Origin: a virus
DNA length: 54,002 nucleotides
IMG/VR virus record: IMGVR_UViG_3300012117_000002
Location: 1 to 54,002 of that record
Strand: one strand, 5' to 3'
Below are positions 989 through 47,693 of this stretch, one piece after another. Made by a program: the position numbers and the translations under genes. The notes beneath the pieces are model-generated. The model saw only the letters and a list, made by a program, of their open reading frames with translations, was not told the DNA's origin and did no database searches. Numbering within the stretch: the first letter of the stretch is position 1; each line of letters begins with the position of its first letter.

Positions 989-1141
989 TTAATTTATCTT
1001 AACGGTAATGGGCGGCATTATTTCCGGCTCCCTCTCCGGCCGCACACGGGCGGGATTAGTCCGCACAATGAATGGATTGAGTGCGCCGTCATTGATGACG
1101 TGGCAGTACTCCGGATCGATTTTCTTATTTTCTTGCTTCAA
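989..1141 (-). CDS. possible 50-aa protein (TTG start), below the ORF-track length cutoff
   Basis: GGAGGA lies 9 nt upstream of TTG at 1141. The ORF fills the gap between the flanking genes. Translation is MKQENKKIDPEYCHVINDGALNPFIVRTNPARVRPEREPEIMPPITVKIN. Confidence 0.35.
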   Translation of the reverse strand: MKQENKKIDPEYCHVINDGALNPFIVRTNPARVRPEREPEIMPPITVKIN

Positions 1142-1766
1142 AGTCACGGTTTCCTCCAATCACATTGCCCAAATCATCCATCTCGTCCCACAAATAGCGG
1201 CCTTTCCCACTGTTTCGCCACTGTCCCATGCCCCTCAGTTCTCCGTAATCAAGCCACTCCCTCACGGCATTGATATGTGCGTCACACAGGCACGAAATTG
1301 TAAAATCAATATAGGCACCCGCCGGAATGGTCTCGCTGTTTGCTAAGGCAATCCGTTCGCCCTGCGCTGTCTGCCCTCTCAACGGACGCTGGCAGTTTCC
1401 GATTTCTCCGACAAAAACAATTGGTATCATCCGCTCTTTTACGAAAATCAACCCATCAATTTCCTTTTTGTACGCTTTGATTTTCGACGAAGCTGAATTG
1501 GGCACCTTCCGTAGGCAGCCGCAGGCGTCCTTGAAAAATCCTTTCACCTGATAATCCCACATGATGGGATGTCCCTCTTTGTTGCGCGGGAAGATGGTCA
1601 TTGATTTTTCAATCACTTCATCAACTCCGACCGCTGCGACTTCTTCGGCCCGTGTTGGTGCGTCAGGTGCGTTGGATGCGATAAATGTGCTGTGAATCTC
1701 CGGATCACTGCTTGCCGTTCCTAAAATTTCCTCCGCAAATGTTACTCTTACTTTTAATTCCTTCAT
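1125..1766 (-). CDS. hypothetical early protein (213 aa) with RAMP-like motifs; function unknown
   Basis: ATG at 1766 is preceded by GAGGAGA. The longer track ORF (to 1883) runs into the repeat tract. Motifs are GHPIMWDYQVKGFFKDA and a C-terminal glycine-rich loop GMGQWRNSGKGRY. Confidence 0.55.
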   Translation of the reverse strand: MKELKVRVTFAEEILGTASSDPEIHSTFIASNAPDAPTRAEEVAAVGVDEVIEKSMTIFPRNKEGHPIMWDYQVKGFFKDACGCLRKVPNSASSKIKAYKKEIDGLIFVKERMIPIVFVGEIGNCQRPLRGQTAQGERIALANSETIPAGAYIDFTISCLCDAHINAVREWLDYGELRGMGQWRNSGKGRYLWDEMDDLGNVIGGNRDFEARK

Positions 1767-1815
1767 TTCTGATCTCCTCTTCTTTGTTGATATTTTAGTT
1801 TTTGAATCCTGTGCT

Positions 1816-2500
1816 GTGCCTTTGCGCTGCTGCACTGTGCATGGCCGTTCCTTTGCTGTGACCTGCCTGGCCTGGCTGTGCAATTCCTCGGCTATTCAAG
1901 ACTATCCACAACCACGCCCAGCGATGCTCTGCCTATACCCTGCTACCCACAGCCTCGCCACTCCTTTGCAACACTTTGCCATGCTCCGCCGTGCCCTTGC
2001 CATACTCCGCCATGTTATCCTGCGCTATGCCTTTGCAACGCGCTGCGTTTCCTTTACAATGCCATCCCTCGCCCTGCCTTGCTCTGCCGTTGCCGTGCAA
2101 GTCGTCGCAATTCCTTCGCTGCTCATCACCATGCCGAGCTACTCCCTTGCTATGCCGTGCCCCGCTGATCAGCGCCATTGCCCTGCCTAGCCATGCCTCG
2201 CTACTCCTTTGCCAATCGGCGGTTAGCACTGCCTTTGCCATTCGTAGTCCCGCCTTGCTCTGCCAACCATCGCTTTGCTTTGCCATTGCATCTCATTGCG
2301 TTGCCATTCCTTTGCTATGCCCAACTCAGCCCTTCGATGCCAATCCTTTGCTATGATCAACGCTTCTGTGCCCTGCCATCCCTTTGCTTGGCGATACCAC
2401 GCTTCGCTCTGCCGTCGCCCGGCCGTGCATTGCCATTCCTTTGCAAATCACCGTCTTGCCCTCCGGCATCCGGCAAATCCAAGCCGGTGCGCTCGTAAAA
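1816..2500 (-). repeat. degenerate G/A-rich (on transcribed strand) repeat tract with no RBS-supported ORF; candidate structured or sponge ncRNA
   Basis: CCTTTGC (GCAAAGG on minus) occurs exactly at 1819, 1850, 1963, 2030, 2206, 2232, 2309, 2345, 2381 and 2438. Three copies are spaced exactly 36 bp apart. Eight mutually overlapping track ORFs in five frames reflect the composition skew. Confidence 0.8.
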
Positions 2501-2647
2501 ATACTTCCGTGATATCCGTCCGGCCACAATGTAAAATCCTTTCGCTGTCAATTCTTCATTGAACTGCTTAATGATCTTGTAAGCCGTGTTTCTTGACACA
2601 TTCATCAACTCTGCGACCTCTGTCGCCCGCATGATTGGTGCTGGCAT
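2357..2647 (-). CDS. excisionase-family/MerR-like HTH DNA-binding protein
   Basis: The N-terminal sequence ATEVAELMNVSRNTAYKIIKQF...GRISRKYFYERTGL is typical of excisionase-type HTH proteins. The last ~40 codons run into the repeat tract and look low-complexity. Confidence 0.7.
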   Translation of the reverse strand: MPAPIMRATEVAELMNVSRNTAYKIIKQFNEELTAKGFYIVAGRISRKYFYERTGLDLPDAGGQDGDLQRNGNARPGDGRAKRGIAKQRDGRAQKR

Positions 2648-2845: not shown

Positions 2846-3595
2846 TTAGGCAATAAACTTGTTGATAAAATATTGCTGGCCGTATCCTGTTACCTTGGTT
2901 GTCTTGCTAATAGTTGTATGCCCATCGGAATGGGTGATTGCAGTTTCCTTAACTTCGAAAAGTTTCATCTCCATACTGCGTTGCGTGGGGGCATTGTAGT
3001 CAGTTCCCTTCCGACGGATCAGATAGCCATTATTTCTTAAATATTCAAATAACCGCTTCTCGCCGGTATCTACACCGTTTTGTTTTAGGATTTTCGCCAG
3101 TTCGCCAATCAAGATCGATGTCTTGCTTGTGGCTACCGCATCGGCAAATAATGCTTTGGGCTTCATTTCGCCAATTAGTTTGTCTTTGCCGGCAATAATG
3201 TTTTGAGCGACAACAAGCGCATTTGCTACAATCTGTTCTGGTGTCAAGTTTTCCTGATTTGCAATATACCCACCATTATTTCTAATTGATGGCAGTACTT
3301 CGCTCGTCACCCAATGCTTGAATCGTTTCGCCGACTCTAGTTTGCTGCTAAGAATAAGGGCATACATTCCGGACTCGTTTATAATTACCGCTTTGCTTTT
3401 GTAATTCGAACCCGTACCCTGTAATAGGGTGGTGGTTTTATCATCATCATCTACGTGCTGACTTATTGCGTTTTCTGTTTTCGCATATCCCAATGCTTTT
3501 GCGATGTCCCTTCCCACAAAATATGTTTCGTTATTCAGTTGTACTGTTCGTATTTGCCCGAACTCTTCGTTGCTAAATATCTGCAATTCCTTCAT
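2846..3595 (-). CDS. phage antirepressor (Bro-N N-terminal domain plus KilAC/ANT-type C-terminal domain)
   Basis: The sequence MKELQIFSNEEFGQIRTV...FVGRDIAKALGY...INESGMYALILSS...AKRFKHWVTSEVLPSIR is the Bro-N signature. It is the first gene of the early operon. Confidence 0.85.
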   Translation of the reverse strand: MKELQIFSNEEFGQIRTVQLNNETYFVGRDIAKALGYAKTENAISQHVDDDDKTTTLLQGTGSNYKSKAVIINESGMYALILSSKLESAKRFKHWVTSEVLPSIRNNGGYIANQENLTPEQIVANALVVAQNIIAGKDKLIGEMKPKALFADAVATSKTSILIGELAKILKQNGVDTGEKRLFEYLRNNGYLIRRKGTDYNAPTQRSMEMKLFEVKETAITHSDGHTTISKTTKVTGYGQQYFINKFIA

Positions 3596-3638: not shown

Positions 3639-3667
3639 ATTATATCACCCATGTTGGTCTGTGTCAA
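3639..3667 (-). promoter_or_regulatory. early (lytic) promoter with consensus sigma-A elements
   Basis: The minus strand reads TTGACA (3667-3662), a 17-nt spacer, then TATAAT (3644-3639). The antirepressor RBS lies about 40 nt downstream. Confidence 0.65.
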
Positions 3668-3738: not shown

Positions 3739-4140
3739 ATGGTAAATAGGATAAAAAAATTGAGAAATGAAAATGATATGACGCAGGAAGAATTCTCTAA
3801 ACGAATCAACATAAGTCGTTCAAACCTTGCAGGTATAGAGACAGGAAAAGTCGGAATCACGGATAGAATCATAAACGATATCTGCCGAGAATTCAATATA
3901 AACGACATTTGGTTGCGGACCGGCAAGGGCAATATGAAAAAAGATCTTTCCATAGAAGAAGAAACATATGGACGATTCGGGAAGATAATGGAAGTGGGAA
4001 GTCCCATAAAGAAAAACATGGCTACAATGCTATTAAAGATAGTAGAAACACTTCCAGACGAACAGTGGGAAAGCATATATGAGGAATTTAAGGCCTGCAT
4101 CGACAGGGTAGAAAGGGCAGAAAAAGAGAGCGAAGACTAA
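3739..4140 (+). CDS. CI-like XRE-family HTH repressor
   Basis: ATG 3739 follows AAGGAGG. The HTH is LRNENDMTQEEFSKRINISRSNLAGIETGK. The gene is divergent from the antirepressor and co-oriented with int. Confidence 0.8.
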   Translation: MVNRIKKLRNENDMTQEEFSKRINISRSNLAGIETGKVGITDRIINDICREFNINDIWLRTGKGNMKKDLSIEEETYGRFGKIMEVGSPIKKNMATMLLKIVETLPDEQWESIYEEFKACIDRVERAEKESED

Positions 4141-4408: not shown

Positions 4409-5476
4409 ATGCCAGCATACAAAGATGAGGCCAGAAAGACATGGTATTGCAAATTTTCATACACTGATTGGACGGGAAAACAGCGGCAGAAGTTAAAACG
4501 CGGTTTCCCGTCGAAGAAAGAAGCCGCTGCTTGGGAGCGTAATTTTTTAGAACGGCAGCAAGGAAGCCCTGACATGACCTTTGGGACCCTCTGTGCGCTC
4601 TATGTGGAGGATATCACCTTACACATTAGGGCATCCACGGTCAAGGGCAAGACAGGCCGTATTAAGAATCATATACTGCCATACTTCGAGGATAAGCGTG
4701 CAAACGAAATAACAACCGCCGATATTCGGAAATGGCAGGGAATTATTATAACAAAGGAATTCAGTCCAACATACCAGCGGCTGATAAACAGGGATCTTAA
4801 TTCTATCTTTAATTTTGCGAAAAAGTATTACAAATTGAACGCTGATCCATGTGCGCCAATAAAGGCTATAGGAAAATCAAAGGCGGGGCGCATGGATTTT
4901 TGGACACAATCCGAATTTATTACTTTTCTCGGATGTGTTGAAAAACCGGAAACTAGATTGGCTTTTCAAATTCTTTTTTACACAGGTGTGCGTTTTGGTG
5001 AGCTGATGGCTATTAATCCGGCTACGGATATTGACTTGAAAAACAAAACCCTGACCGTATCAAAGTCCCACTATCGAGACCACGGCGAAGACATAATTAC
5101 ACCCCCAAAAACCGAAAATAGCAATCGCGTTGTTGCGCTGCCACCTTTTTTAACTGATTTAATTGAAGATTATATGAGCCATATCTATGATATTCAGTCC
5201 AGAAACAGGTTATTTTTGTTCTCGCGCTCGAAATTAAGAAGAGCAATGAATAGAAGCTGCCAGCAATCCGGTATCAAGCAAATTCGGGTACATGACATTA
5301 GGCATAGCCACGCTTCCATGTTGATAGAGATGGGGTTTTCTCCCATATTGATAGCCGAAAGAATTGGCGATACCGTCGAGATGGTTAACAACACCTACGG
5401 CCACCTGTATCCCAACAAGCATAAGGATGTGGCTGATGCATTGGCTCAATCGTATCAAAACTGTATCACGGGCTGA
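4409..5476 (+). CDS. int: tyrosine recombinase (phage integrase) with N-terminal arm-type DNA-binding domain
   Basis: ATG 4409 follows AAAGGAGG. The N-terminus is KTWYCKFSYTDWTGKQRQKLKRGF. Catalytic motifs are GVRFGEL, HDIRHSHASMLI and NTYGHLY. Confidence 0.93.
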   Translation: MPAYKDEARKTWYCKFSYTDWTGKQRQKLKRGFPSKKEAAAWERNFLERQQGSPDMTFGTLCALYVEDITLHIRASTVKGKTGRIKNHILPYFEDKRANEITTADIRKWQGIIITKEFSPTYQRLINRDLNSIFNFAKKYYKLNADPCAPIKAIGKSKAGRMDFWTQSEFITFLGCVEKPETRLAFQILFYTGVRFGELMAINPATDIDLKNKTLTVSKSHYRDHGEDIITPPKTENSNRVVALPPFLTDLIEDYMSHIYDIQSRNRLFLFSRSKLRRAMNRSCQQSGIKQIRVHDIRHSHASMLIEMGFSPILIAERIGDTVEMVNNTYGHLYPNKHKDVADALAQSYQNCITG

Positions 5477-11568: not shown

Positions 11569-11665
11569 CTCCTGTAATTTATTATAACTAACTATAACAT
11601 ACTATTACAAACATGTCAATATCTTTTTGGGAATGATTTTCGAGTTGCAATTTTCCACAATCTAC

Positions 11666-11702
11666 CATATAATAATTTCATCAAAAGAGAAAGGGGGATA
11701 TA
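11666..11702 (+). promoter_or_regulatory. promoter/leader cassette (TATAAT plus RBS), duplicated at 12753-12787
   Basis: catataataatttcatcaaaagagaaagggggatata here versus catataataatctcatcaaaagaaaaggggatata at the second site. Confidence 0.5.
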
Positions 11703-11707
11703 AACAT

Positions 11708-12679
11708 TTGAAAATAATTAAAGCCTTTCTAATAATTAGTATTTTATCGATTTTATTTGCCGGGATTATGCAGATTTCATTCTTGTCAGAAAACGCAAAG
11801 TTTTTACTATTTATATCTATAATTATTCTGTGGATGATAAAAAAGAATTTTCTTAAAATTAGAATTTTATTTTTAAAAATCGGAATGAAAATTCAAAAGA
11901 CAAAAATGTTTTTTTCGAAGATAGGACTGCGTTTAATTAATGTGAAATTTCGTTTTAGCAACATAAGGCTAGGGAAATCGGATGCAACCCCTAGATATTC
12001 AAGTATGTCCGATTCTGCTCCCGTAGTTGCACCGTTAGACTCACTGACAGACGGCTACGCATTCGAGGCTTACATAGCCGATCTACTCTTGAAAAATGGC
12101 TATAGCAAGGCATCGCCAACACAAAAATCCGGAGATTTTGGTGCTGATGTAATAGCTGAAAAAGATGGTGTGAGATATGCTATTCAATGCAAGTTATATA
12201 GTCAACCGGTAGGAAATAAGGCTGTAGGGGAAATTCTTGCTGGAATGCAATATTACAACTGTCACGTGGGGGTTGTGGCGACAAATAACACTTTCACAAA
12301 AGCTGCAATCGAAATAGCCCAAAAATCGAACGTATTGCTGTGGGATAGGAGCGTGCTATTAAAAATGGCTCCAATACCAAGTCCAGAGCATTTCAATTCA
12401 TATCAATCGTCTTACCGCCTTAGACACAATCTCCAGTCAGAGGAATGTAGTGATAATGAATTGTATTTACATGCGGTGGAATGTGCCTTGGAAAAAGGAA
12501 AGGTATCTATTGGATCACTGCAAAGGGAATTGGGTATAAAATTTAATTGTGCATTTGCCATTGTGGAAAAAATGGAGAAAAATGGAATCATTGATTGTTC
12601 CGACGAATCAACTTACCGTCACACATTAATATCAAACGAAAAATGGATAGAGATAAAGTCCGGGCAAAACATTTCATAA
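11708..12679 (+). CDS. membrane-anchored Mrr-type (PD-(D/E)xK) restriction endonuclease-like protein with C-terminal FtsK-gamma-like winged helix
   Basis: TTG 11708 follows AAGGGGGA. There are two N-terminal hydrophobic helices. The Mrr_cat pattern is FEAYIADLLLKNGY...GDFGADVIAE...YAIQCKLY. The C-terminus is VSIGSLQRELGIKFNCAFAIVEKMEKNGII. Confidence 0.7.
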   Translation: MKIIKAFLIISILSILFAGIMQISFLSENAKFLLFISIIILWMIKKNFLKIRILFLKIGMKIQKTKMFFSKIGLRLINVKFRFSNIRLGKSDATPRYSSMSDSAPVVAPLDSLTDGYAFEAYIADLLLKNGYSKASPTQKSGDFGADVIAEKDGVRYAIQCKLYSQPVGNKAVGEILAGMQYYNCHVGVVATNNTFTKAAIEIAQKSNVLLWDRSVLLKMAPIPSPEHFNSYQSSYRLRHNLQSEECSDNELYLHAVECALEKGKVSIGSLQRELGIKFNCAFAIVEKMEKNGIIDCSDESTYRHTLISNEKWIEIKSGQNIS

Positions 12680-47027: not shown

Positions 47028-47693
47028 TTAATAATCAAATATATTCATCTGATCTTTGGCGGCGTTCAATCTTTCGCTGGCCGCCTTGTAATAATCCGGA
47101 TCAAGCTCAAATCCGATGTAATCAAATCCCAGTTCCCTACAGGCCACTAAGCTGCTTGCGCTACCGACATGCGTATCGAGAATCTTGTCACCCTTCTTGG
47201 CGTAGTTGTTTAAAATCCATTTATATAGTGCCACCGGCTTTTGCGTTGGGTGAATACGAACTTCTTTGTTGCTCATGTTTTCCTGCAGCATTCCACTCCA
47301 CCTATATCGAAATTTCCTAACAGCTGTTGGAAAACTGGTCCACGCAAGTTCGCAATCAGCAAAGTCCGTGTTGCCATTGTCTTTATCCCACACGAGCCAG
47401 CAATGGCTATCTAACGGGATGCGGCTAATATAATGATTGGCCCCGAATATGATTTGATTTTTTGATACTCGTAATAATTCCTTGAAATATTCTTCGCCTG
47501 GCGGTTTGGTATCTTTACCAGCAAACGGTTTGTAGTCCTTAGCTTTTGCTAATTTACCGCGGGACTTGTTTTTTTCTCCGCTTTCACCAATGCCATACGG
47601 CGGGTCGGTTATGGCGAGTTCGAAATACTTGTCGGGATATTGTTTCATTCCCTCCACACAATCCATGTTCAGAAAACTGTTTAATTCAAACAT
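47028..47693 (-). CDS. beta-class N4/N6 DNA methyltransferase
   Basis: Motif IV ITDPPYGIG near the N-terminus and motif I-like ILDTHVGSASS near the C-terminus. Confidence 0.85.
   Translation of the reverse strand: MFELNSFLNMDCVEGMKQYPDKYFELAITDPPYGIGESGEKNKSRGKLAKAKDYKPFAGKDTKPPGEEYFKELLRVSKNQIIFGANHYISRIPLDSHCWLVWDKDNGNTDFADCELAWTSFPTAVRKFRYRWSGMLQENMSNKEVRIHPTQKPVALYKWILNNYAKKGDKILDTHVGSASSLVACRELGFDYIGFELDPDYYKAASERLNAAKDQMNIFDY

Follow-up and report, generated by a model that had tools for sequence, protein, structure and literature searches.

A probable VIPR system with short, punctuated guide modules in the genome of a temperate Clostridia-type myovirus

The DNA analysed here, called the window, is the whole of IMG/VR virus record IMGVR_UViG_3300012117_000002 (54,002 nucleotides), a complete 54-kb temperate phage genome with terminal repeats, in which repressor, integrase, terminase, portal and tail sheath genes were found. 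The phage is a temperate Clostridia-type myovirus, and its host may be Lachnospiraceae-like, judging from where homologs of the protein described below occur (mostly Clostridia genomes and gut viral contigs). An early operon on the minus strand is headed by a Bro-N/ANT antirepressor (2846..3595, minus strand) with the same domain layout as in a related contig, and continues through an excisionase-type HTH gene (phrog_989; 2357..2647, minus strand) and a five-base-periodic array (1810..2449, minus strand) to the vipr gene (1125..1766, minus strand). The 3' end of the HTH gene enters the first array units; its product has 96 amino acids, as against 67 in the related locus L001, because the frame continues into the array. 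A predicted sigma-70 promoter with a perfect 12/12 match and an extended -10 element (3639..3667, minus strand) is directed toward the antirepressor, the HTH gene, the array and vipr, and is presumably the early lytic promoter; no terminator-like site was found on the minus strand between it and vipr. The temperate-phage context is completed by a divergent Cro/CI-type repressor (3739..4140, plus strand), followed by a tyrosine integrase (4409-5476). Elsewhere in the window, positions 11627-12679 encode an FtsK-gamma domain fused to an Mrr-type nuclease.

Across approximately 100 homologous loci, the genes beside vipr form 32 clusters upstream and 26 downstream, with no constant partner; the excisionase-type HTH gene is not a constant neighbour of the array either. 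A small ORF (989..1159, minus strand) that overlaps the vipr stop is present only in the six closest loci and is at most a weak candidate for an accessory gene, so that the system of the window probably has none. A sequence-only reading of the window had stated that the genome contains no other cas gene and no CRISPR array, and this was upheld: the complete 54-kb genome has no match to RAMP (PF03787) or Cas1 (PF01867), the two families searched, and no CRISPR-like direct repeats. A related complete phage of 60.8 kb (L233/G005) has a 79% identical integrase, and no vipr homolog was found in it; it may serve as a natural VIPR-null comparison or be a competitor.

The vipr gene encodes 213 amino acids and has the ribosome-binding site GAGGAGA (1773..1779, minus strand) 6 nt before its ATG; the reading frame, this site (rated as good in the sequence-only reading) and the three protein motifs quoted there were all confirmed. 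The same reading had assigned the protein to the RAMPs, and the fold was borne out by an AlphaFold2 model (mean pLDDT 78.5, pTM 0.75), whose leading structural matches are RAMPs and not, as that reading had named for its refutation, a non-RRM family. The 50 PDB matches listed by Foldseek, of which the best has E = 3.3e-7, are all chains of CRISPR effector complexes, in most cases type III Csm or type VII, and the best VIA-align score (Z 11.9) is to type III RAMP chains (for Csm3, 6ae2_B, rmsd 2.7 over 140 residues), with weaker matches to Cas6 (Z 8.3) and to RNase P proteins (Z 6-7). As modelled, the protein is a single-RRM RAMP nearest to Csm3/Cas7, with a thumb hairpin at approximately residues 123-147 and a C-terminal glycine loop at residues 179-189. 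Searches with the protein gave no match in Pfam or PHROGs and nothing useful in NCBIfam or among PDB sequences, and the TIGR01903 Csm4 model matched 8 of 68 relatives weakly. The description of the protein as an orphan holds only within this genome, as it has at least 8000 clusters of homologs (90% identity, E <= 0.001), or 1745 clusters at 50% identity. Among the homologs, P0185 (458 aa) and P0214 (432 aa) are about twice the usual length and contain two matched stretches, possibly as tandem Vipr fusions; a distant homolog (28% identity, E 9e-5) is found in Hydrogenobaculum phage 1 from a hot spring (KP282676.1:15487-15981).

A CRISPR-related phage system that combines a lone RAMP (Vipr) with five-base-repeat RNAs, the NN dinucleotides of which read DNA with a one-base skip, is described in the text of a preprint (bioRxiv 10.64898/2026.04.26.720920) that catalogues 667 such VIPR systems and reports experimental demonstration of RNA-guided DNA binding for the VIPR of SUSP1. 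No Vipr structure was present in the PDB up to April 2026. SUSP1 Vipr was recognised from residues that the structure paper names, with agreement at eight of the nine residues checked. When a profile of the window clade was compared with 46 kb of SUSP1, the top ORF was SUSP1 Vipr (E 0.022), and HHalign aligned the clade with the SUSP1 Vipr family weakly over its full length (184 columns, E 9.6e-5, probability 58%). SUSP1 residues W178 and R179 are retained as W183 and R184 in the window protein, whereas the scaffold-reading residues H17, R138 and D177 align with T17, E145 and Q182, of which E145 and Q182 are nearly invariant within the clade. Replacement of arginine by glutamate (E145 versus R138) would suit A or C, rather than G, at the second scaffold position.

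The array consists of 104 pentamers of the form G-M-N-N-N (M = A or C), broken every three to nine units by a six-base element, G-C-N-A-N-G, of which there are 20, so as to form approximately 19 putative guide-RNA (vrRNA) modules of 21-51 nt, each 5n+1 long. Its lag-5 autocorrelation is 0.44 (0.283 +/- 0.017 in 500 shuffles), with further peaks at lags of 21, 26, 31 and 36 that indicate a one-base offset between successive guides, and its array score is 220, as against 11.8 at most elsewhere in the genome. The tract has no match in Rfam, no marked RNA structure on folding (z -1.56), and no structured 3' tail between modules. The same architecture recurs in the relatives: modules are 5n+1 long, mostly 26-36 nt and mostly of four to six pentamers, and in the pentamers of 100 loci position 1 is G (94%) and position 2 is A or C (90%), followed by three variable bases (entropy 0.35, 1.44, 1.75, 1.94 and 1.91 bits at positions 1 to 5); the hexamer of these loci is again G-C-N-A-N-G. 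The pentamers lack the canonical GGY scaffold, as only about 2% of them have G at position 2. A co-occurrence check of homologs with similar repeat tracts, proposed in the sequence-only reading, found an array adjoining the gene at 98 of 100 homologous loci (upstream in 80, downstream in 14, on both sides in 4), the two exceptions being at contig ends; together with the RAMP fold, this linkage supports the two-part module of RNA and RNA-binding protein that had been proposed. Phages whose Vipr proteins are 96-99% identical have some modules in common and others swapped. Two other occurrences of similar repeats were noted. At L208:10980-11352, 73 G-M units form a pentamer array (score 50) beside an antirepressor. 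Phages of Staphylococcus, Listeria and Enterococcus with genomes of 130-155 kb (for example KJ591604.1, PQ626786.1 and MH880817.1) contain many AGG(A/T)T tracts (up to at least 34), mostly intergenic and five-base-periodic, which could be arrays of VIPR type or another dispersed repeat.

Candidate targets were found for a few modules of related phages. The lead came from joining positions 3-5 of long modules from L052 and L062, which gave five-base-periodic AGG(A/T)T strings that match phage replication-initiator genes; the motif is of low complexity, and the lead was noticed post hoc after many tests. A module of L057 matches the sense strand of the Javan64 replication initiator at 28 of 30 bases (E 1e-4), the top BLAST match among 50,697 phages, with both mismatches at position 3. 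Its variant in L049 and L052 matches the initiator of a Lachnospiraceae-family prophage (L357) at 26 of 30 bases, and all four mismatches are again at position 3; the module of L049, L052 and L057 is an internal duplication. At positions 4-5, both variants agree with these initiators of other Firmicutes phages at 20 of 20 bases with a one-base skip, the closing hexamer included. The L062 module is spelled differently, and its top 12 BLAST records are in phages of Firmicutes plus one of Tenericutes; 11 of these lie in annotated genes, seven of them named as replication or DnaD-like proteins. The same initiator family has a DDGFV motif that is spelled by a second L062 module, and between an L087 module and another initiator 17 of 18 bases agree, the single mismatch being synonymous. 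The initiators that these related phages themselves encode belong, like that of the window, to a different family from the matched ones, which fits non-self targeting.

Full agreement at positions 4-5, with mismatches only at position 3, implies the register G-M-x-N-N and the published one-base-skip code, and inclusion of the closing hexamer in this register implies that the hexamer is the last unit plus one G. This register is likely to be the one in use, as far as decoding can tell. Position 3 nevertheless agrees with the targets at 8 of 10 sites for L057, 6 of 10 for L052, 7-8 of 10 for L062 and 6 of 6 for L087, as against a fraction of about 0.3 in shuffles, and this may reflect weak pairing, a trace of acquisition or selection bias. 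When all modules were pooled there was no aggregate excess of target matches, so the evidence on targets comes from few modules.

For the 19 modules of the window itself, no target was found above chance. There was no excess of self-targeting within the window under 12 reading rules, nor of matches to genomes of the close clade under 21. The two longest window modules (hexamers at 2289 and 1938) were also scanned against IMG/VR as exact gapped patterns; across the two registers there were 16, 33, 2 and 58 scattered matches, attributed to chance because they stopped short of the neighbouring modules and those in the position 4-5 register failed at the following hexamer. The same gapped patterns in 351 Lachnospiraceae-family genomes stayed near the reversed-pattern control, no gap length from 0 to 8 bases was preferred in guides built from two modules, and the L062 decode had no match within three mismatches in 201 genomes. 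If the skip falls on the wobble base, positions 4-5 of the window module at 2150 agree in 12 of 12 bases with the integrase of L003 (L003:446-463, minus strand), a sibling with a 98% identical Vipr and a different integrase; the module at 2212 agrees equally (12 of 12, wobble skip) with the window's own DNA-methyltransferase-like gene (47028-47693) at 47290-47307. Both matches are within chance and count as leads only, since wobble-phase matches as a class do not exceed those in shuffles. Contiguous decodes of 22 nt in a sulfatase-like gene of an unrelated contig and of 18 nt in an unrelated tape-measure gene were also taken as chance, and a match to the L278 terminase was discarded for want of extension to the neighbouring module and hexamer. 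A module of the L090 array decodes to an 18-nt perfect palindrome (p ~0.015), and a small phage gene rich in Tyr and Gln (L212:540-556) contains 17 nt of it; the match stops before the end of the module.

Several other explanations were weighed. The same VIPR system might read contiguously, with positions 3-5 all pairing, or position 3 might record the skipped base as guides copy the target; either is unlikely. Only two of the five pentamer positions are fixed, position 3 follows the target as described, the contiguous reading exceeded within-module shuffles (z ~2-2.5), the L090 module yields its palindrome under this reading, and the residues that read the scaffold in SUSP1 are replaced. The two best matches, however, are mismatched solely at position 3, none of the three frames of the literal L052 string is free of stops, contiguous reading was not supported by a Markov-likelihood test, and one excess over shuffles was partly present in unrelated DNA too. 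An excess of Shine-Dalgarno-like decodes (7 versus 2.2) proved to be present with scrambled positions as well, which also tells against the notion that short modules bind many host and phage sites, such as gene starts, as a wide damper of transcription during infection. Most modules do hold only 10-14 informative bases, for which chance recurrence is expected in a 3-Mb genome, and the decodes of several resemble Shine-Dalgarno sequences on the sense strand, but the longest modules point at specific phage genes, and such broad binding seems quite improbable. A relaxed code in this clade, in which the third base follows the target by pairing or as a trace of copying and short modular guides are directed against rival replication genes, is a doubtful elaboration; in its copying variant, guides may be made by copying target DNA with two scaffold bases inserted after every third base.

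Very little probability attaches to the proposals that the protein and array form a decoy or anti-CRISPR that jams type I or III complexes of the host, or that the protein processes or protects a sponge RNA, both of which had been raised in the sequence-only reading. The structural closeness to Csm3 and Csm4, the weak Csm4 matches and the location in an early operon could accommodate a decoy, which would need neither hypervariable, reshuffled modules nor a strict five-base period. The tract bears no likeness to a CRISPR repeat and, as noted, lacks an Rfam match and marked structure; its hypervariable pentamer code is that of a VIPR array, and the modules of relatives decode to DNA of other phages, which fits the RNA-guided DNA binding reported for SUSP1. 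That the tract has nothing to do with the vipr protein, being a neutral repeat or a protein-coding gene of low complexity, may be practically dismissed: it is crossed by open frames, the longest of 119 codons, and in a related contig a gene caller predicted an ORF within the array, but such frames are not kept in close relatives, the 5n+1 module lengths are evenly spread modulo 3 (337/268/368), which argues against coding, and the array accompanies vipr on either side of the gene.

The RAMP fold, the alignment with SUSP1 Vipr, the linkage to arrays, the reshuffled modules and the initiator matches speak for a VIPR system; the weak SUSP1 homology (58%), the missing GGY, the short modules and the want of a window target or an aggregate excess weigh against it. 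On balance, the gene and its adjoining five-base array almost certainly constitute a VIPR system, and the best explanation overall, a very likely one, is a VIPR of a temperate Clostridia-type myovirus with guides against rival phages. That rival phage DNA is the main target is itself fairly probable on the decoded matches. With fold, array, linkage, variability and, in relatives, register observed, expression, processing, binding and effect in the window may be envisaged as follows. The layout suggests that array and vipr would be transcribed from the early lytic promoter. Vipr protomers, given the fold homology to SUSP1 Vipr, would coat the RNA, one per pentamer. In each G-M-x-N-N unit, positions 1-2 would be scaffold and positions 4-5 would pair with the target DNA strand, one base being skipped, as in the decoded matches of relatives. 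The hexamer, whose role as last unit those matches support, would by its extra G shift the register and mark the guide boundary, and the array RNA may be cut into separate guides at the hexamers. The filament would then bind the DNA of phage competitors, among other sites at the repeat region of their replication-initiator genes, a target class supported in relatives, and binding may block transcription or replication of the rivals.

VIPR has been proposed to predate CRISPR, and type II is the sole VIPR type studied in depth; guide acquisition is not addressed in the text of the 2026 preprints. The present clade is very large in phages of gut Clostridia (at least 8000 protein clusters) and differs in its scaffold and in its short modules, which can be swapped. 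Should its guides be directed against replication genes of rivals, part of the exclusion between gut phages would be explained, and if position 3 truly mirrors the skipped base, it would offer a testable handle on guide acquisition, or an intermediate between gapped VIPR and contiguous CRISPR.

Compared with known systems, the window protein shares the RRM core, thumb and glycine loop of CRISPR type III Csm3/Cas7-group RAMPs, but at 8-18% identity, outside any cas operon and without a match to RAMP family models, in a genome without cas1 or CRISPR repeats, and with an RNA step of five bases instead of six. Cas6 possesses two RRMs and has CRISPR repeats as substrate; the window protein has one RRM, which aligns to one half of Cas6 at a lower Z, in a genome without such repeats. 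With the type II VIPR of Escherichia phage SUSP1 (Vipr ALH47069.1; bioRxiv 10.64898/2026.04.26.720927, 10.64898/2026.10.15.759431) it has in common a full-length profile alignment, a glycine loop with conserved Trp-Arg and a size of approximately 200 amino acids, but identity is only 17-21%, and the clade lacks the structured 3' tail, the GGY scaffold characteristic of type II (SUSP1, P. fulva) and guides of 9-16 repeats, the length given for published vrRNAs in the preprint text (bioRxiv 10.64898/2026.04.26.720920). VIPR types II-VII have a conserved vap accessory gene, for which no constant candidate is evident beside vipr in the loci compared. Non-canonical VIPR arrays (such as GAC/NN and WGT/NN; bioRxiv 10.64898/2026.10.21.760802) likewise have a five-base period, a non-GGY scaffold and a Vipr-like fold nearby; their motifs are said to repeat about ten times, and that text does not mention a punctuated G-M form. 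Closest are the staggered vrRNA arrays with relaxed repeats (YNNNG/NNNNG) described in the Methods and fig. S18 legend of bioRxiv 10.64898/2026.04.26.720920, a repeat class that, by the preprint text, G-M-N-N-N fits. As described there, common features are a lone small phage RAMP, an adjoining pentamer array with a one-base register shift between guides, a degenerate scaffold and, as proposed here, one-base-skip reading with rival phages as targets; the differences are short modules of three to nine pentamers closed by a fixed G-C-N-A-N-G hexamer, a G-M rather than GGY scaffold, and a position 3 that tends to follow the skipped base of the target. Systems of this kind are already known; the one described here, punctuated, with a G-M scaffold and short modules, is a variant of VIPR, for which the G-M-x-N-N register and the replication-initiator target class, both in related phages, appear to be new.
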